Source of the DNA: a virus
Lineage: Duplodnaviria; Caudoviricetes
Length of the DNA: 64,000 nt
Direction: 5' to 3' (one strand)
IMG/VR virus record: IMGVR_UViG_3300032237_001007
Span: 47,021-111,020 of that record
Of the stretch, positions 39,402 to 64,000 are shown one piece after another. The stretch's first letter is position 1, and every line of letters begins with the position of its first letter. The position numbers and the translations under genes are program-made. Below the pieces are notes generated by a model that saw only the letters and a list, made by a program, of their open reading frames with translations, made no database searches and was not told the DNA's origin.

Positions 39402-39818
39402 ATGTTTAATTTTAATTTTGGAAATAAAAAACCAGATATAAAACAATATGCAATCATAGGAATTGTGTTGAGTTCTATTATTGCGGCACTTTCTCAATGT
39501 ACTCATATCAAAGAAAATACTATATGGGACTTATTTGATGAACTTCAAAGAAGATATTTTCCTCAAACAATTATTAACGATTTTATAATTAAAGATCCTG
39601 AAAAACTTAATCGGAGAATTCATAGAGATGTTGATAGAGCAATAGATCAGGTAACTCCAGAATACGATCGTATTATTCGTGAAGCAGATCAAAAATATAA
39701 ACCAAAATATGTTGATGAAAAGAATGATGAAAGTGTCTGCTATACTGATGAATGTAAGGCACTTGCACCTCCAATGAGGATTTGTTCTCCTTGGTGGGAT
39801 GATTGCCCTAAAAATTAG
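39402..39818 (+). CDS. Hypothetical membrane-anchored protein
   Basis: N-terminal TM segment, Cys-rich C-terminus. Confidence 0.7.
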   Translation: MFNFNFGNKKPDIKQYAIIGIVLSSIIAALSQCTHIKENTIWDLFDELQRRYFPQTIINDFIIKDPEKLNRRIHRDVDRAIDQVTPEYDRIIREADQKYKPKYVDEKNDESVCYTDECKALAPPMRICSPWWDDCPKN

Positions 39819-39853
39819 CTATATAAACATATCTTATTTTTTTGGAGATTACT

Positions 39854-40048
39854 ATGTCCGTATCACAAGAACTCTTAAATGCCGTTGAAGCATGGAAAGT
39901 AGAAGACGAAAAGTTTGCTGCTGGCAATAGTGCAGCAGGAACTCGTGCTCGTAAGGCACTTCAGGAAGTTGCCAAACTGGTCAAAGCCCGTAGAACCGAA
40001 ATCACTGAAGAAAAGAACGCTCGTAAGGAAGCAAAGGCAGCAGGTTGA
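39854..40048 (+). CDS. Hc1 (histone H1-like) family small protein
   Basis: EKF..GNSAAGTRARKAL.E...L....R..I; GGAG RBS. Confidence 0.75.
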   Translation: MSVSQELLNAVEAWKVEDEKFAAGNSAAGTRARKALQEVAKLVKARRTEITEEKNARKEAKAAG

Positions 40049-40073
40049 CTTTAGTGCCCTGATGCCTTATAGT
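40045..40073 (+). promoter_or_regulatory. Sigma70-type promoter for the tRNA/ncRNA array
   Basis: TTGACT-17 nt-TATAGT. Confidence 0.7.
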
Positions 40074-40081
40074 AGGTTCAC

Positions 40082-40156
40082 GGGTGAAGGAGGTCCAAAC
40101 TTCTTATAAATCCCACACCTCCCATGCCTCTCAACGATGCACAAACAGGGAGGTCT
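40082..40156 (+). ncRNA. Candidate structured RNA A
   Basis: AAGGAG/CTTCTT and ACCTCCC/GGGAGGT stems. Confidence 0.4.
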
Positions 40157-40159
40157 CTT

Positions 40160-40232
40160 GCCGCAGCAGCATGACGGATCATGCACCATCCTTCTAAGAT
40201 GTATGATATAGGTTCAAATCCTATCTGCGGTG
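40160..40232 (+). tRNA. tRNA-Arg(TCT)
   Basis: GCCGCAG/CTGCGGT acceptor, GCAT/ATGC D stem, loop CTTCTAA, ATAGG-TTCAAAT-CCTAT; no encoded CCA. Confidence 0.88.
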
Positions 40233-40259
40233 CTTGGAGTTTTTTCTCCATATATAAAC

Positions 40260-40316
40260 TGATAGAGGTTAAGTCCCTGTTATATCCTTATGAGATATCT
40301 CACACTTACTTCATCA
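40260..40316 (+). ncRNA. Candidate structured RNA B
   Basis: Nested TGAT/ATCA, TAAGT/ACTTA, ATATC/GATAT. Confidence 0.45.
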
Positions 40317-40319
40317 AAT

Positions 40320-40402
40320 GTAGGAAGTGCAACACCTCTCGCTGGTTCAGGCTGGATGATGTGAAAGATGATTCTGTCCGCACATAGAAATCTCTCCTAC
40401 CA
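40320..40402 (+). ncRNA. Candidate structured RNA C (pseudoknotted)
   Basis: GTAGGA/TCCTAC closing stem, GTG-caa-CAC, GGATG/TGTCC with ATGTG/CACAT crossing pair. Confidence 0.5.
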
Positions 40403-40408
40403 CAACAT

Positions 40409-40481
40409 TCCCCGATAGCTCAATTGGAAGAGCAAAGTGCTGTTAACACTGAGGTTGTTGGATCGTGCCCAACTCGGGGAG
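40409..40481 (+). tRNA. tRNA-Asn(GTT)
   Basis: TCCCCGA/TCGGGGA acceptor, GCTC/GAGC D stem, loop CTGTTAA, atypical T loop ATCGTGC. Confidence 0.88.
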
Positions 40482-40483
40482 TT

Positions 40484-40550
40484 CACTGCCCTCTAATGTA
40501 GTGAAAATCGCAGAAAGTGTCTTCTGCGGGTATCGGGCACTCGTTACCCA
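40484..40550 (+). ncRNA. Candidate structured RNA D (complementary loops)
   Basis: CACTGC/GTAGTG; CGCAGAA-AGTGTC-TTCTGCG; GGTATCG-GGCACT-CGTTACC. Confidence 0.55.
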
Positions 40551-40553
40551 TTT

Positions 40554-40625
40554 TCCGAAGTAGCTCAGTGATAGAGCAGGAATTTTGTAAATTTCAGGTC
40601 GCAGGTTTGATCCCTGTCTTCGGAT
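40554..40625 (+). tRNA. tRNA-Thr(TGT)
   Basis: TCCGAAG/CTTCGGA acceptor, GCTC/GAGC, loop TTTGTAA, GCAGG-TTTGATC-CCTGT. Confidence 0.85.
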
Positions 40626-40626
40626 C

Positions 40627-40655
40627 TTGACATAATACTCATTATGTATTATACT
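40627..40655 (+). promoter_or_regulatory. Sigma70-type promoter
   Basis: TTGACA-17 nt-TATACT. Confidence 0.75.
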
Positions 40656-40679
40656 TTCTTTTGTGTGAAGGAAGGGCGA

Positions 40680-40751
40680 TGAGAGTGATGCCAAAAGTAA
40701 GGCACCCCGACAAGGGATACAGTAGGAGGATGCAAAACCTTCCACTCTCAC
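40680..40751 (+). ncRNA. Candidate tRNA-like RNA E without a normal anticodon loop
   Basis: GAGAGTG/CACTCTC, TGCC/GGCA, CCC/GGG, GGAGG/CCTTC cloverleaf. Confidence 0.55.
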
Positions 40752-40755
40752 AAAT

Positions 40756-40827
40756 GCGGATGTAACTCAACGGTAGAGTTCCTGCCCTCCAAGCAGGTTG
40801 TTGCGTGTTCGAATCACGTCATCCGCT
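40756..40827 (+). tRNA. tRNA-Gly(TCC)
   Basis: GCGGATG/CATCCGC, ACTC/GAGT, CCTGC-CCTCCAA-GCAGG, GCGTG-TTCGAAT-CACGT, T discriminator. Confidence 0.92.
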
Positions 40828-40854
40828 TTCAAGATCGTAAAAACCGAAAAGGAG

Positions 40855-40888
40855 TTGACTGATCTTGAAAAGACTGCTATGATAAATA
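40855..40888 (+). promoter_or_regulatory. Sigma70 promoter overlapping a late-type ATAAATA
   Basis: TTGACT-17 nt-TATGAT immediately continuing into AAATA. Confidence 0.65.
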
Positions 40889-40965
40889 CTGAAACATTTG
40901 ATGCCCCAACTACTCGCATCAAACATAAAAAATTACAAATGTCGTTTAGTACTAAAAACACTTTT

Positions 40966-41841
40966 ATGAAAATCAAATCTATTGTTGCTGGTGCCGTTGC
41001 TGCTTCTGCAATGACCGCTCCTGCATTTGCAGGACAATTTCCTGATGTCTCTCCCACCAATTGGGCATATCAGGCAATTACTAACCTGAATGCTCGTTAT
41101 GGTTGCCTTGCTGGATATCCTAATGGCACTCTGAAGCCTGCTCAGTCTGCTACTCGTGCCGAAATGGCTGCTCTAACAAGTGCTTGCCTGGACCGCATTT
41201 CTGAGTTCTCTAGTGCCGAAGATGCCCGCACTGCTGCTGCTCTTCGTGCTGAGTTCTCTAAGGAACTTGCTGCTACTAATGCTCGTGTAACGACTCTGGA
41301 AGTTGCTTCCGCTCGTAAGGCACAAGGAGTTGGTGAATATGTTGGTGTTGGCGTTCTGTTGGACAAGCAGGGTGTTGCCGGTAATGGATATAGTGCAAAT
41401 CGCACTGTTTCTGGTGCCACCATTCAGGCACGTATTCCTTTTGCTACTGTTTGGGGCAATGAAGTTTCAGTTCGTCCTTATGCTAACTTTGTCGGTAGTC
41501 CTGCTGGTCAGATTGGTGCTGCTGGTGGTGCCCTTGCTACCTATGACTATTCCATCTCACGTAAGGTTCTTGCTGATGGAACTAAAGTAAGTCGTGCAAA
41601 TGTCTATGGTGGTATTGGTTATCAGGTTCCTTTTGTGAACAATACGACTTCCAATTATCAGTCTGCTATTGGATCACAAGGTCAAGTTGTTTTTGCTCTG
41701 GGCGTTGAAGGACGCATTACCAATTCTCTGGTTGGTTTTGCTGATGTTAAGTTCCCCACTACCAATGCTGCTAATAGCTATGGAGTTACTAGAGGTTCTT
41801 ATAGTCCAGTATTCACGACTGGTATCGGTATCAAGTTCTGA
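40966..41841 (+). CDS. SLH-domain outer-membrane beta-barrel protein (cyanobacterial porin-like N-terminus)
   Basis: Signal peptide ...APAFA, FPDVSPTNWAYQAI..L..RYGCLAGYPNG, TRAEMAA, coiled coil, amphipathic strands ending GIGIKF. Confidence 0.85.
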   Translation: MKIKSIVAGAVAASAMTAPAFAGQFPDVSPTNWAYQAITNLNARYGCLAGYPNGTLKPAQSATRAEMAALTSACLDRISEFSSAEDARTAAALRAEFSKELAATNARVTTLEVASARKAQGVGEYVGVGVLLDKQGVAGNGYSANRTVSGATIQARIPFATVWGNEVSVRPYANFVGSPAGQIGAAGGALATYDYSISRKVLADGTKVSRANVYGGIGYQVPFVNNTTSNYQSAIGSQGQVVFALGVEGRITNSLVGFADVKFPTTNAANSYGVTRGSYSPVFTTGIGIKF

Positions 41842-41917: not shown

Positions 41918-42361
41918 ATGGAAAAACTTTTTAAACTATTAAGTGATGCCCAGGCATCACTTTTTGTTCTTTTTCAAAAAACATGGATTTATCACTGGGA
42001 TGTAGTTGGACCAGATTTTCAACAACTTCATACTATGTTTGGTGGTCAATATGAAACAATGTTTGAAGAGATTGATACTCTTACCGAACATATGAGATAT
42101 TTGGGTATGAAACCAGTCAGTACTCTTACGAGAATTACTGAAGTAACTCAAATTGATCAAGCATCTAATAGTGCTCAAGATGTTGATGCAAAAGAAATGA
42201 TAAAGCAACTTAGAGATGATAATAAAAAAATTGTTGATATTTTTGCCGATATTTCTGAAGAAGCAGATAAAGAAAGACAATTTGCAACTTCAAATTTAGT
42301 TCAAACTTTAATGGAAACTCATGGTAAATTCCACTGGATGTTAAGATCATTTTTAGAATAA
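41918..42361 (+). CDS. dps: Dps ferritin-like DNA protection protein
   Basis: YHWDVVGPDFQQLH.MF..QY, DTLTEHMR.LG, HGKFHWMLRS. Confidence 0.92.
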   Translation: MEKLFKLLSDAQASLFVLFQKTWIYHWDVVGPDFQQLHTMFGGQYETMFEEIDTLTEHMRYLGMKPVSTLTRITEVTQIDQASNSAQDVDAKEMIKQLRDDNKKIVDIFADISEEADKERQFATSNLVQTLMETHGKFHWMLRSFLE

Positions 42362-43467: not shown

Positions 43468-43592
43468 GTGGTGGAGTCAAAGACCCAATGTGTCCTCGTC
43501 GGATGGACATTAAATATGCCGACTGGTGCGGATGGAGGTAACACTCCCGCCTGGTTTCCAATTTCCAGATAAAAAAATTGGTGGCGAGTATG
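43466..43592 (+). ncRNA. wcaG-type RNA motif, tandem form
   Basis: Three TGGYG repeats separated by two H-type pseudoknots (GTCC/GGAC + GTCGG/CCGAC; CTGG/CCAG + CCAATTT/AAATTGG); upstream of WcaG-family genes. Confidence 0.7.
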
Positions 43593-43599
43593 AAAATAT

Positions 43600-46514: not shown

Positions 46515-47450
46515 ATGGAAAAAAATTCTAAAATTTTTGTTGCAGGACACAAAGGACTTGTCGGATCTGCTATAGTAAAGTTACTTAAAAGTGAAGGTTA
46601 CACTAATATCATTACTGCTACCAGACAAGAGGTTGATTTACTTAATCAATCTCAAGTAGAAGAATTCTTCAGGCAAGAGAGTCCAGAGTATGTATTTGAT
46701 GCTGCTGCTCGTGTTGGTGGAATTCATGCCAATAATCAATATTCTGCAGAATTTGTTTACGAAAATATTCAAATTCAATCTAATTTAATACATTTTGCTT
46801 GGAAATATGGAGTAGAAAAGTTTTTGTTTATTGGATCTGTTTGCATTTATCCTAAGTATGCAGAAACTCCAGTAAAAGAAGAATCTCTTATGACTGGATA
46901 TCTTGAACCAACAAACGATGCCTATGCAGTTGCAAAAATTTCAGGAATTAAAATGCTTCAGGCATATCATAAACAATATGGATTTAAGAGTATATCACTG
47001 ATGCCATCTAACATATATGGTCCGGGAGACAACTTTCATCCAGAAAACGGACATGTAATTCCATCTATGATAACTAAATTTAACAAATCTAATGGTAAAA
47101 AAGTTGTATTCTGGGGAGATGGAACCCCACTTAGAGAATTTCTGTTTTCTGAAGATCTTGCAGATGCCTGTTTATTTGCTATGGATCATTATGAAAATGC
47201 TGAATTAATAAATGTTGGTTCTGGATGTAACATAAGTATTAGAGAACTTGCAAGTACAGTTGCTTCTATTGTTGGTTATAGTGGAGAAATTGAATGGGAT
47301 ACATCAAGACCAAATGGAACTCCAAATAGACCTTTAGATTCTTCTAAAATTTTTGAACTTGGATGGAAACCAAAGCATACTTTATTACAGGGACTTAATA
47401 AAACTTACAAATGGTTTTGTATGAATACGTATTATGATAGTTCCAAGTAA
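46515..47450 (+). CDS. fcl: GDP-L-fucose synthase
   Basis: AGHKGLVGSA, AARVGGIHAN, GS.CIYP, LEPTN.AYA.AK, YGPGDNF, HVIP, WGDG. Confidence 0.95.
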   Translation: MEKNSKIFVAGHKGLVGSAIVKLLKSEGYTNIITATRQEVDLLNQSQVEEFFRQESPEYVFDAAARVGGIHANNQYSAEFVYENIQIQSNLIHFAWKYGVEKFLFIGSVCIYPKYAETPVKEESLMTGYLEPTNDAYAVAKISGIKMLQAYHKQYGFKSISLMPSNIYGPGDNFHPENGHVIPSMITKFNKSNGKKVVFWGDGTPLREFLFSEDLADACLFAMDHYENAELINVGSGCNISIRELASTVASIVGYSGEIEWDTSRPNGTPNRPLDSSKIFELGWKPKHTLLQGLNKTYKWFCMNTYYDSSK

Positions 47451-61944: not shown

Positions 61945-62062
61945 TAACCTTGTTCTTCTGCAACCGAGACCATCAGAAGTTAAGTGTCTCTCATACTACC
62001 TTTCTCTTGAGGGTAGAGAAAGGAAATAACGTAAATAGGCAAACCCTAGCCTTACTTATTTC
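61945..62062 (+). ncRNA. Structured psbA leader, PhotoRC-II-like RNA motif
   Basis: CTTCTG/CAGAAG with GAGAC/GTCTC pseudoknot; CCTTTCTCT/AGAGAAAGG hairpin whose AGGGT loop complements downstream ACCCT. Confidence 0.65.
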
Positions 62063-62078
62063 TTTTTAGTAAAAAATT

Positions 62079-62726
62079 ATGACTGCTACAATTGCTACAC
62101 GTCGCTCAACTACTTCGGCGTGGGATCAGTTTTGTAACTGGATTACTTCAACGAACAATCGTCTTTATGTTGGTTGGTTCGGAACTCTGATGATTCCAAC
62201 ATTGCTTGCCGCAACCACAATGTTTATTATTGCATTTATTGGTGCCCCAAGTGTGGACATTGATGGTATTAGAGAACCCGTTGCTGGGTCTTTAATGTGG
62301 GGAAATAACATCATTTCTGGTGCCGTTGTTCCTTCTTCTAATGCTATCGGTTTGCATTTTTACGCAATCTGGGATGCTGCTTCCCTTGATGAATGGCTCT
62401 ATAATGGTGGACCATACCAGTTTATTGTTTTTCACTTCCTTATTGGTGTGTGGTGCTATGCTGGTAGAGAATGGGAACTTTCCTATCGTCTTGGAATGCG
62501 TCCTTGGATTTTTGTTGCCTTTACTGCACCTGCGGCTGCTGCAACCGCAGTATTTCTCATCTATCCAATCGGACAAGGTTCCTTCTCTGATGGAATGCCC
62601 CTAGGCATCTCTGGCACATTTAATTATATGCTTGTATTTTCCGCAGAACACAACATTCTTATGAATCCGTTTCATATGTTAGGTGTTGCTGGTGTATTTG
62701 GTGGTTCTCTGTTTAGTGCTATGCAT
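62079..62726 (+). CDS. psbA: Photosystem II D1 protein, exon 1 (216 codons, ends ...FSAMH)
   Basis: Unmistakable D1 sequence; similarity breaks exactly after the His215-equivalent codon. Confidence 0.97.
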
Positions 62727-63619
62727 AGGGAACTGTGCCCTTGCTGAGTAATCAGTAAGTGAAAATCGGGTGAATTGCTGGAACCCTAAGTTACTAAAAT
62801 GTTACTTGACTTATATAAATAACTCTGGTAACATAAACTTTATGACTAACCAGTACTTATCTTTTATTGAGGAATGTAAATCAAAAACATATCCTCCCAA
62901 TACATATCTTGAAGAACACCATATTGTTCCAAAACACGATGGTGGGTCAGATAACTCAGAAAATCTAATTTTATTATCCTTTGAAGACCACATACTCGCA
63001 CATAAAATAAGGTACGATGTATACAGTCAAGTTTATGACTTAGCAGCATATAACTTGATGTGTGGTTTTGATAGTGAAGGTTGGAGACTTCTTAGAGTTG
63101 AAGGTGCTTATAAAACACACGAAGCACTAAAATTATCCAAGAAAAACTTTTGGAGTTCTGATTATCAAAAAGAAATGTCTGCTCGTTCTGTAAAGTCTGA
63201 GTATGCTATGAAAATGAGAAGTGTTGGTGGTAAAATTGGTGGTAAGAATAGAAACAAAAATGTTGCTATTACTTCTACTGATAAGTATATTTTCTCTCAT
63301 AATAAAGTTGAAACAGTTTGTGTAATAAACTGCGAAACTGGTGGAGAAGTTTTAGAAGAACTACAAAAAATAGTTCCCAATCAAAACTTCAAAAGGGTAA
63401 CACCTTTATTAAAAAAACAGAGAGAAAATGCATATGGTTGGTCTTGTGAAAAGTTTAGTAATACGGCAATCAGCAGCCAAGTCTCAGATGCATCTGAGAA
63501 AGGTTCAGAGACTACCTGAGGGGTTTAGTCCCCTTAATAACAGGAATAAGTGCCCGACAACCTAATGCAACTTAGGTTGATGATATAGTCCACTCCTTAT
63601 GAAAATAAGGTATAATAGG
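62727..63619 (+). mobile_element. Group I intron 1 in psbA (893 nt)
   Basis: P1 GCAU/GUGC with U-G at splice site; P10 GGGAAC/GUUCCC; core AATTGCTGGAA, AATCAGCAG, TCAGAGACTA, ATATAGTCC; terminal G; removal restores AMH-GSLVT. Confidence 0.93.
62842..63519 (+). CDS. Intron-encoded HNH homing endonuclease
   Basis: EEHHIVPKHDGGSD..ENLI.L...DH..AH; own TATAAATA at 62814-62821. Confidence 0.88.
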   Translation: MTNQYLSFIEECKSKTYPPNTYLEEHHIVPKHDGGSDNSENLILLSFEDHILAHKIRYDVYSQVYDLAAYNLMCGFDSEGWRLLRVEGAYKTHEALKLSKKNFWSSDYQKEMSARSVKSEYAMKMRSVGGKIGGKNRNKNVAITSTDKYIFSHNKVETVCVINCETGGEVLEELQKIVPNQNFKRVTPLLKKQRENAYGWSCEKFSNTAISSQVSDASEKGSETT

Positions 63620-63976
63620 GGTTCCCTCGTAACCTCTTCACTGGTTCGTGAAACTACCGAAACTGAATCCCAAAATAAAGGATATAAGTTCGGTCAAGAG
63701 GAGGAAACATATAATATCGTAGCCGCACACGGGTATTTTGGTCGTCTTATTTTCCAATATGCGTCCTTTAATAACTCCCGTTCACTCCATTTCTTCCTCG
63801 CAGCTTGGCCTGTTGTAGGTATTTGGTGTGCTGCTCTTGGTATTGCAGTTTCTTCTGCGAACTTGAACGGTCTAAACTTTAATGGTTCTATTATGGATAA
63901 CCAAGGAAGAACTATTAAAACTTGGGCAGATTTATTGAATTCTGCCAATCTTGGTATTGAAGTTATGCACGAGCGT
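63620..63976 (+). CDS. psbA: Photosystem II D1 protein, exon 2 (GSLVT...EVMHER)
   Basis: Continues D1 in frame after intron removal. Confidence 0.95.
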
Positions 63977-64000
63977 CAAGTTGTGCTTTGCGCTCTTTAA
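63977..64000 (+). mobile_element. 5' end of second group I intron in psbA (truncated by window)
   Basis: D1 similarity stops after Arg334 codon CGT; P1 GAGCGU/GCGCUC with U-G; AAGTTGTGC complements the expected A-H-N-F codons of the next exon. Confidence 0.8.

Follow-up and report, generated by a model that had tools for sequence, protein, structure and literature searches.

What fills the space between the genes of a phage transfer RNA (tRNA) operon? The question is raised by a locus in the IMG/VR virus record IMGVR_UViG_3300032237_001007, of which a stretch of 64,000 nucleotides (positions 47,021 to 111,020; here called the window) was analysed. The record is 111 kb long and is estimated to be 57% complete, and among isolates it is closest to S-SRM01, a Synechococcus phage from freshwater (80.6% identity across 54% of a 1.2-kb query). 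The locus is best explained as an RNA-only operon of a freshwater T4-like cyanophage, in which four tRNAs are interleaved with five conserved non-tRNA RNA modules (spacers 1 to 5) and two promoters are present. No plausible protein gene was found within 40049-40797, where the listed open frames all cross tRNAs. Two of the modules point to an answer. Spacer 1 (module 1) contains an RNA of the abiF family, spacer 2 (module 2) has its counterpart in the leader RNA of a second type of host abiF gene, and no cognate toxin gene was found with them in the phages. Modules 1 and 2 are probably orphan antitoxin-RNA decoys, released by tRNA processing and directed against two clades of the toxin AbiF.

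The part of the operon that carries these two modules comprises the following features.

40045-40073, + strand: promoter P1, TTGACT-17-TATAGT, sigma-70-like, 10/12 in the promoter scan
40082-40114, + strand: 5' domain of spacer 1, a stem of 3 base pairs (bp) enclosing a 6-bp hairpin, from alignment A5
40118-40154, + strand: abiF RNA motif (Rfam RF03085), 53.8 bits against a gathering score of 37, model positions 1-37 of 37
40160-40233, + strand: tRNA-Arg (TCT), called by ARAGORN and Rfam
40260-40316, + strand: spacer 2, an irregular hairpin RNA of 57 nucleotides (nt), 73.3 bits with model R1, invariant apical sequence CCUUAUGAG

The abiF motif of spacer 1 ends 5 nt upstream of tRNA-Arg and is the sole copy in the 111-kb record, and S-SRM01 carries RF03085 in the same place (49.3 bits). 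In the domain ahead of it, the 3-bp stem pairs 40082-40084 with 40112-40114 and the 6-bp hairpin pairs 40087-40092 with 40100-40105. The 7-nt loop of this hairpin, GUCCAAA (40093-40099), is nearly invariant and reads GUCCA(A/C)A across cyanophage copies. An alignment of 40 distinct cyanophage sequences of spacer 1 (A5) was paired in 96.9% of cells, with 10 of 18 pairs changed on both sides; none of 500 shuffles reached its score, and controls in which the alignment was slid were paired in 38-61%. The helices taken one by one are the 6-bp hairpin (97.1% paired, 4/6 pairs changed on both sides), the 3-bp stem (96.7%, 2/3), the 6-bp P1 helix of the abiF motif (95.4%, 3/6) and its 3-bp P2 helix, which lies partly within the seeding pattern (100%, 1/3 changed). 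The order is the same in the 40 cyanophage copies, namely promoter, 3-bp stem with 6-bp hairpin, abiF motif, 5-8 nt and tRNA. At three of the loci (L085, L088 and L093) the sequence after the abiF motif resembles the 5' half of a tRNA (GUCUCAGUAGCUCAGU...); ARAGORN calls none there, and the stretch may be a disrupted or unusual tRNA-Arg.

AbiF is classed as a type III toxin-antitoxin system and is a proposed ancestor of Cas13, and in the complex of a Prevotellaceae AbiF with its RNA (PDB 8VZ6) the RNA blocks the HEPN active site, according to the accessible portions of PMC12737573, PMC13064643 and PMC12948488. A preprint available in part (bioRxiv 10.1101/2025.04.15.648962) reports that the abiF motif RNA neutralises AbiF by direct binding, that the Clostridioides (C.) difficile RNA RCd22, which contains two abiF motifs, neutralises the AbiF toxin in cis as well as in trans, and that the C. 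difficile phage phi027 carries an AbiF system. Module 1 is like the known abiF RNAs (RF03085; AbiFr, RCd22) over the full 37-position model, in both helices and in the 3' bulge CAAAC. Known abiF RNA systems have the abiF gene downstream, whereas for module 1 of the phage none was found; it lies inside a tRNA operon and has an extra conserved hairpin in front. RCd22, in the accessible part of its description, has a pair of motifs on a single RNA; the phage instead has a single canonical motif and, in addition, one module of a second type. The same Rfam family has been met before in a related cyanophage, S-CREM1, and blastn links spacer 1 of the window to the annotated feature there; the S-CREM1 paper (PMC9964418) lists the match as a small RNA that is likely functional, and the part of its text available to us proposes no target, draws no link to tRNAs and has no remark on a missing toxin gene.

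Is the toxin then absent from the phages? We searched for it with the Pfam model Abi_2 (PF07751). No match was found in the window's own record (0/1), in the complete S-SRM01 genome of 240,842 bp, which has both modules 1 and 2 (0/1 at E <= 1), in 30 viral records with the motif adjoining or near tRNAs (0/30; 5 of them at least 90% complete), or in 50 large cyanophage records carrying spacer modules (0/50; 4 at least 90% complete). Two host AbiF proteins used as queries likewise gave no match in the window's record or S-SRM01. Among other motif-bearing viral records, 2 of 50 had Abi_2, so the search works and some viral motifs, a minority, are part of ordinary AbiF systems; the other 48 of these 50, complete phages of 41-59 kb with terminal repeats among them, had no match. 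Since no Abi_2 gene was found and a tRNA follows the RNA instead, the locus is read as an orphan antitoxin-like RNA and not as a toxin-antitoxin system.

The modules might nevertheless supply the antitoxin to a toxin-antitoxin or superinfection-exclusion system that the phage itself carries, with a toxin that is too divergent for Abi_2 or is encoded in the missing 43% of the record. AbiF systems on phages and prophages do exist, as phi027 (in the preprint text available) and the 2 of 50 viral records illustrate, and the window's record is only 57% complete. What makes this explanation quite improbable is the complete S-SRM01, in which both modules occur with neither an Abi_2 match at E <= 1 nor a match to host AbiF, together with the viral records that are at least 90% complete, none of which has Abi_2 (0/9, from 0/5 and 0/4). 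The neighbouring genes, moreover, encode an Hc1-like histone, an SLH-domain porin and a Dps protein.

Spacer 2 defines a second RNA family. It has no Rfam match, and its core is present, unannotated, in S-SRM01, S-CREM1, S-SZBM1 and S-RIM8. In an alignment of 58 distinct sequences (A1), 96.2% of cells were paired, against 30-50% in slid controls; 9 of 19 pairs had changed on both sides, and none of 500 shuffles came up to the score. The supported parts are helices of 8 and 6 bp. The basal four pairs are nearly invariant and therefore give no covariation signal, and the column pair 1-57 is unpaired in 29 of the 58 rows. An armless tRNA mimic, with a 12-bp stem and an anticodon-like 7-nt loop CUUAUGA, was considered for this spacer and dropped, as RNAalifold and the counts favour one long irregular hairpin.

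Do bacterial relatives of these two RNAs exist, and where? Host searches were centred on a Cyanobium genome, which was reached via the phage psbA. A covariance model (R1) built from phage copies of spacer 2, with the window sequence in the seed and host copies left out of it, matched 3 of 151 Cyanobium-family genomes at 59.4-63.1 bits. All three matches lie 137-190 nt upstream of an Abi_2 (AbiF) match on the same strand. The host copies keep the unpaired stretches GAUAGAG, CCCUGUU, AUGAG, AUCAC and CCAUC, and their stems are fully compensated, having been rebuilt with G-C pairs. This agreement in sequence and structure marks spacer 2 as a homologue of the leader RNA that precedes the abiF genes of a second host clade. 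In the host loci the module is a promoter-proximal leader directly before Abi_2, in the same place as the abiF RNA though with a different fold; the position upstream of Abi_2 holds for 3/3 host copies and not for the phage copies, which are orphans. At one such host locus a TTGACA box stands about 40 nt upstream of the RNA, which is followed by an Abi_2 protein of 346 amino acids with the sequence RNRCAHH.

The first RNA family has host relatives in the same setting. Abi_2 was found above the cut-off in 31 of 401 sampled Cyanobacteriota. Of the 18 Cyanobium-family genomes that carry it, 14 show an RF03085-like motif (29.1-33.6 bits) that lies on the same strand, 119-240 nt upstream, and 3 have the module-2 RNA as leader instead; in the one that is left, the gene is broken and there is no leader. 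Across the 18 genomes the leader types are thus mutually exclusive, and 17 genomes carry one or the other. The P1 sequence type is common to the phage copy and the host motifs of the first type, as are the flanks and the 3' bulge CAAAC. The AbiF proteins of the two clades are only 26% identical to each other, and both match the AbiF of the 8VZ6 complex (PbAbiF-RNA; E = 3.6e-26 and 6.6e-35). Two AbiF clades, each with its own leader RNA, therefore occur in the host family. In the phylum sample, the motif scored above the gathering score at 3 of the 12 best Abi_2 loci, and among those genomes only one (G285) matched psbA. The loop GUCCAAAC of the 5' hairpin of spacer 1 (40093-40099) resembles the 3' bulge GCCCAAAC of the host abiF-like motif (host loci L215-L222); the likeness could reflect a second mimic of an inhibitory single-stranded element, or coincidence.

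The place of the modules relative to promoters and tRNAs bears on another explanation, under which they would be cis-acting parts of the tRNA precursor that stabilise the transcript or guide RNase P, E or Z and have no role after cleavage. In many copies a few bases separate a promoter from the start of module 2 or of the spacer 5 leader; for module 2, a promoter scoring at least 9/12 ends 3-8 nt upstream in 53 of 125 copies. A tRNA follows 0-6 nt downstream in 64 of 120 copies of module 2 and precedes it by at most 40 nt in 82 copies, and relatives such as S-SRM01 have a plain promoter-proximal leader hairpin before tRNA-Gly. All this would suit a processing aid. In the hosts, however, both RNA families were found only before Abi_2 and not in tRNA operons (3/3 for R1 and 14/18 for the RF03085-like motif). 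The unpaired nucleotides are invariant in phage and host copies, which fits a protein-binding surface better than a generic stabiliser, and 78 of the 80 motif-bearing viral records searched have no Abi_2 match, many motif loci having no tRNA nearby. A purely cis-acting role is for these reasons unlikely.

A survey with the exact 15-base core of the abiF motif gave at least 117 viral contigs, and the flanking P1 complementarity is present by eye in nearly all of them. The motif lies within 10 nt of a tRNA in 20 of the 117 motif-core loci listed, which come from several phage lineages. It stands 3-8 nt upstream of tRNA-Arg (TCT) in the cyanophage group and of tRNA-Asp, tRNA-Gln or tRNA-Tyr elsewhere, or 9 nt downstream of tRNA-Met or tRNA-Thr. 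This tight spacing is the sole basis for the proposed release of the RNA by RNase P and tRNA 3' processing. Most viral contigs listed with the motif core have no tRNA nearby. Orphan abiF RNAs thus seem to be widespread beyond tRNA arrays and beyond cyanophages.

How would such RNAs serve a phage? We infer that the operon is transcribed as a single precursor from which the modules are freed. In the proposed mechanism, the AbiF HEPN RNase of the host would be held inactive by its own cis-encoded RNA, as in published AbiF systems, and infection would disturb the supply of this antitoxin RNA, so that the toxin is freed and the infection aborted. The phage would flood the cell with look-alike RNAs made from the strong tRNA promoter, and host RNase P, in cutting the 5' end of the tRNA that follows 3-8 nt downstream, would trim these decoys. 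Decoys that bind and neutralise AbiF would keep it blocked, and the infection would go on. The sequence-only reading, made before any database search, had offered decoys for anticodon nucleases or protein sponges as possible roles of the spacers. For spacers 1 and 2 this idea has now gained a concrete target, AbiF, whereas none has been assigned for spacers 3-5; the anticodon nuclease itself gives way to a HEPN RNase of type III toxin-antitoxin character, which is not a demonstrated anticodon nuclease.

There is a precedent for such a strategy in phage PhiTE, whose pseudo-ToxI escapes ToxIN by RNA mimicry (PLoS Genet 2012, PMC3475682, available to us in part). As with modules 1 and 2, the phage RNA resembles the antitoxin RNA of the host and is proposed to keep the toxin neutralised. 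The PhiTE cases are reportedly rare laboratory escape mutants with expanded or captured ToxI repeats. Unlike them, modules 1 and 2 are fixed and conserved in the genomes of wild phages, concern another toxin family, are of two types and lie in a tRNA operon. They share with a mimic that they are phage-encoded, resemble a host antitoxin and have no cognate toxin found in the phage. Because phage mimicry of a type III antitoxin RNA is already known for ToxIN, they would represent a variant of a known strategy. Non-tRNA RNAs are also found in the tRNA cluster of T4, where the stable species 1 and 2 (rnaC and rnaD) are co-transcribed and co-processed with the tRNAs; we know of no function for them, and their likeness to the modules of the present operon is one of description only, as non-tRNA RNAs in a phage tRNA cluster.

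Does the same answer extend to the rest of the operon? Downstream of tRNA-Arg, and apart from spacer 2, it contains the following features.

40235-40250, + strand: small hairpin UGGAG-N6-CUCCA, then UAUAUAAAC; folding z = -3.08
40320-40404, + strand: spacer 3, a three-way-junction RNA of about 81 nt closed by GUAGGA/UCCUAC, from alignment A4
40408-40482, + strand: tRNA-Asn (GTT), called by ARAGORN and Rfam
40484-40549, + strand: spacer 4, three consecutive hairpins (40484-40503, 40510-40527 and 40528-40549), from folding and alignment A2
40554-40626, + strand: tRNA-Thr (TGT), called by ARAGORN and Rfam
40627-40655, + strand: promoter P2, TTGACA-17-TATACT, sigma-70-like, 11/12 in the promoter scan
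40680-40750, + strand: spacer 5, an 8-bp closing stem (UGAGAGUG/CACUCUCA) around three small hairpins, from the single-sequence fold and an alignment
40756-40827, + strand: tRNA-Gly (TCC), called by ARAGORN and Rfam

The framework seen by the sequence-only reading was sound: ARAGORN and Rfam agree on its four tRNAs, and its two sigma-70 promoters (at 40045 and 40627) score 10/12 and 11/12 and are conserved in relatives. The -35 box of promoter P1 overlaps the stop codon of the Hc1-like gene, and its pattern TTGAC-N17-TAnnnT is kept across the aligned cyanophage loci, while promoter P2 begins at the base right after tRNA-Thr and is conserved in the relatives' loci L075, L001 and L093. The region has 8 promoter-like sites, compared with 3.4 +/- 2.0 in shuffles. 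The small hairpin at 40235-40250 occupies the place where other copies have a TTGACA-17-TAnnAT promoter, as seen in the alignment and the context table.

The same reading had held the spacers to be relatively GC-rich, structured, non-tRNA RNAs, to be checked against known families. Their G+C content is raised in four of the five units (0.50 in spacer 1, 0.48 in spacers 3 and 4, and 0.49 in the core of spacer 5, compared with 0.327 over the window as a whole) but only 0.35 in the spacer 2 core. An Rfam match, named beforehand as a refuting outcome, was obtained for one of the five, spacer 1 with its RF03085, which is thus not an unknown RNA; the other four have none, and a scan of 39800-41000 at E <= 10 returned, beyond the tRNAs and abiF, only small nucleolar and long non-coding RNA noise far below gathering scores. 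That the spacers are conserved structured RNAs in a polycistronic tRNA operon is borne out by recurrence in all five and by covariation-supported folds in four, spacer 5 being too invariant for such a test. Spacers 1 to 5 recur in at least 117, at least 120, 36, 79 and 40 viral contigs, respectively. For spacers 1-4, 96-99% of cells are paired, 4-10 pairs have changed on both sides, and none of 500 shuffles reaches the covariation score. Taken one sequence at a time, folding is informative only in part: z is -1.95 for the abiF motif of spacer 1, and -2.05, +0.58, -4.25 and -2.2 for spacers 2, 3, 4 and 5, respectively. The comparative evidence is much stronger. Stems that are kept by compensatory changes while loops and bulges stay invariant, over 20-58 distinct sequences per module, indicate selection on the RNA.

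Spacers 3-5 are real conserved RNA modules. Spacer 3 shows 99.1% pairing over 20 distinct sequences (alignment A4), where 4 of 23 pairs carry changes on both sides; its longest helix falls inside the seeding pattern and never varies. Its tail is CACA in the window and CACCA in most relatives, the 3' end reading ...CCUACCACA here and ...CCUACCACCA in most relatives. Spacer 4 ends 4 nt before tRNA-Thr; across the 45 distinct rows of its alignment (A2), pairing reaches 98.5%, and both sides have changed in 6 of 20 pairs. Its recurrence count of 79 refers to the core of hairpins 2-3, and some copies have other hairpins in place of hairpin 1. Spacer 5 is predicted to fold like a cloverleaf with a stunted middle arm; where relatives have their plain leader hairpin, the window adds an insert of 47 nt. 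This inner insert is what recurs in 40 viral contigs, and its 25 distinct sequences differ so little that the cloverleaf-like fold is beyond the reach of a covariation test.

The variability of the arrays raises the alternative that the modules are decaying relics, either captured abiF leaders or degenerate tRNAs, that persist through a fast turnover of tRNA arrays. Array content varies widely, with 1 to 30 tRNAs per locus among relatives, the modules combine in many different sets among the fetched loci, and spacer 5 has its cloverleaf-like predicted fold with a stunted middle arm. Such relics are nevertheless highly improbable, given that stems are compensated across 20-58 distinct sequences per module with loops and bulges invariant, that ARAGORN calls no spacer a tRNA on the + strand down to 65% of its normal thresholds, and that the Rfam tRNA model (RF00005) has no sub-threshold match in the spacers. 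Spacers 3-5 had been considered as decayed tRNAs and were dropped as such for lack of an ARAGORN call at the relaxed thresholds.

By analogy with modules 1 and 2, modules 3-5 may be decoys for other RNA-binding defence proteins. A wider version of the decoy idea takes the whole operon as a modular RNA anti-defence cassette, in which each non-tRNA module, including the GUCCAAA hairpin and spacers 3-5, would act as a decoy for a different host defence protein, and the tRNAs would serve both as punctuation for processing and as replacements for tRNAs cut by HEPN nucleases such as AbiF. We put this forward tentatively and consider it doubtful as a whole. If it is true, phage tRNA arrays would be hubs that collect and shuffle RNA counter-defences.

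Several observations weigh against modules 1 and 2 as AbiF decoys or against the extension to the other modules. Abi_2 was found above the cut-off in only 18 of 401 Cyanobium-family genomes. The picocyanobacterial leaders of the first type stay below the gathering score on account of an apical loop that is 8 nt longer, and the phage motif resembles the general consensus more closely than it does the picocyanobacterial version, so that the true target AbiF is not pinned down. Most viral records are fragments, for which the absence of Abi_2 counts little; the main weight falls on S-SRM01 and on the 9 records with at least 90% completeness. Exact patterns served as seeds for the alignments, and their columns are invariant by construction; the samples lean to close relatives. 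Contigs from freshwater metatranscriptomes (4 runs from 2 studies) cover 39846-40123, 40091-40154, 40176-40553 and 40685-40758, which places these segments in RNA libraries, gives neither ends nor strand, and could stem from carried-over DNA; it is not taken to prove transcription, and gaps in the cover carry no meaning. A motif search for the GUCCAAA hairpin at 25 host Abi_2 loci gave scattered matches, none of them with the hairpin. The model of spacer 3 (R3) had a best match of E = 0.07 in the host family and E = 0.46 at Abi_2 loci, with 0 of 151 in the class sample, and that of spacer 4 (R2) had a best match of E = 0.07 in 151 Cyanobium-family genomes and none better than E = 0.059 at the 25 Abi_2 loci with filters off; the large searches scored only about 30 first-look candidates per genome and can miss weak matches. 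In a class sample of 151 genomes R2 gave one match, of 24.7 bits, which falls within a long open frame of the opposite strand and was treated as chance. For neither spacer did the samples yield a credible host counterpart.

What would follow if modules 1 and 2 are AbiF decoys? RNA-only anti-defence genes would be common in wild phages and invisible to protein-based anti-defence screens, and a comparison of phage non-coding RNAs with the leader sequences of toxin genes in hosts could reveal them. The literature searched, which did not extend to a 2025 Cell paper on AbiF or to supplements, contained no natural phage counter-measure that uses orphan AbiF antitoxin RNAs, no second AbiF leader family and no placement of such RNAs in tRNA operons. 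The present analysis defines a second family of AbiF leader RNA for a distinct AbiF clade, and the three further conserved phage RNA families are candidates for the same leader-matching approach. Cultured hosts are available for three phages that carry module 2, namely Synechococcus KCZYC6 for S-SRM01 and Synechococcus CB0101 for S-CREM1 and S-SZBM1.

The operon is flanked by three protein genes.

39842-40048, + strand: histone H1-like Hc1 protein, E = 9e-14
40930-41841, + strand: SLH-domain protein, annotated as a porin in S-SRM01
41918-42361, + strand: Dps/ferritin-like protein

Between the operon and the SLH-domain gene, just after tRNA-Gly, a third promoter-like site is found on the + strand at 40855-40883 (TTGACT-17-TATGAT with an upstream TG, 10/12), within an inverted repeat CAAGATC...GATCTTG. 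The window also contains, on the + strand, a wcaG RNA (Rfam RF01761) at 43490-43595 (70.6 bits against a gathering score of 42) and a PhotoRC-II RNA at 61945-62037 (46.4 bits), which stands ahead of psbA (exon from 62079; region 61945-64000). A group I intron (Rfam, 63397-63611, 50.4 bits) splits psbA and overlaps an open frame of 249 amino acids at 62770-63519, and an HNH-like stretch recognised by eye in this frame would suggest a homing endonuclease.

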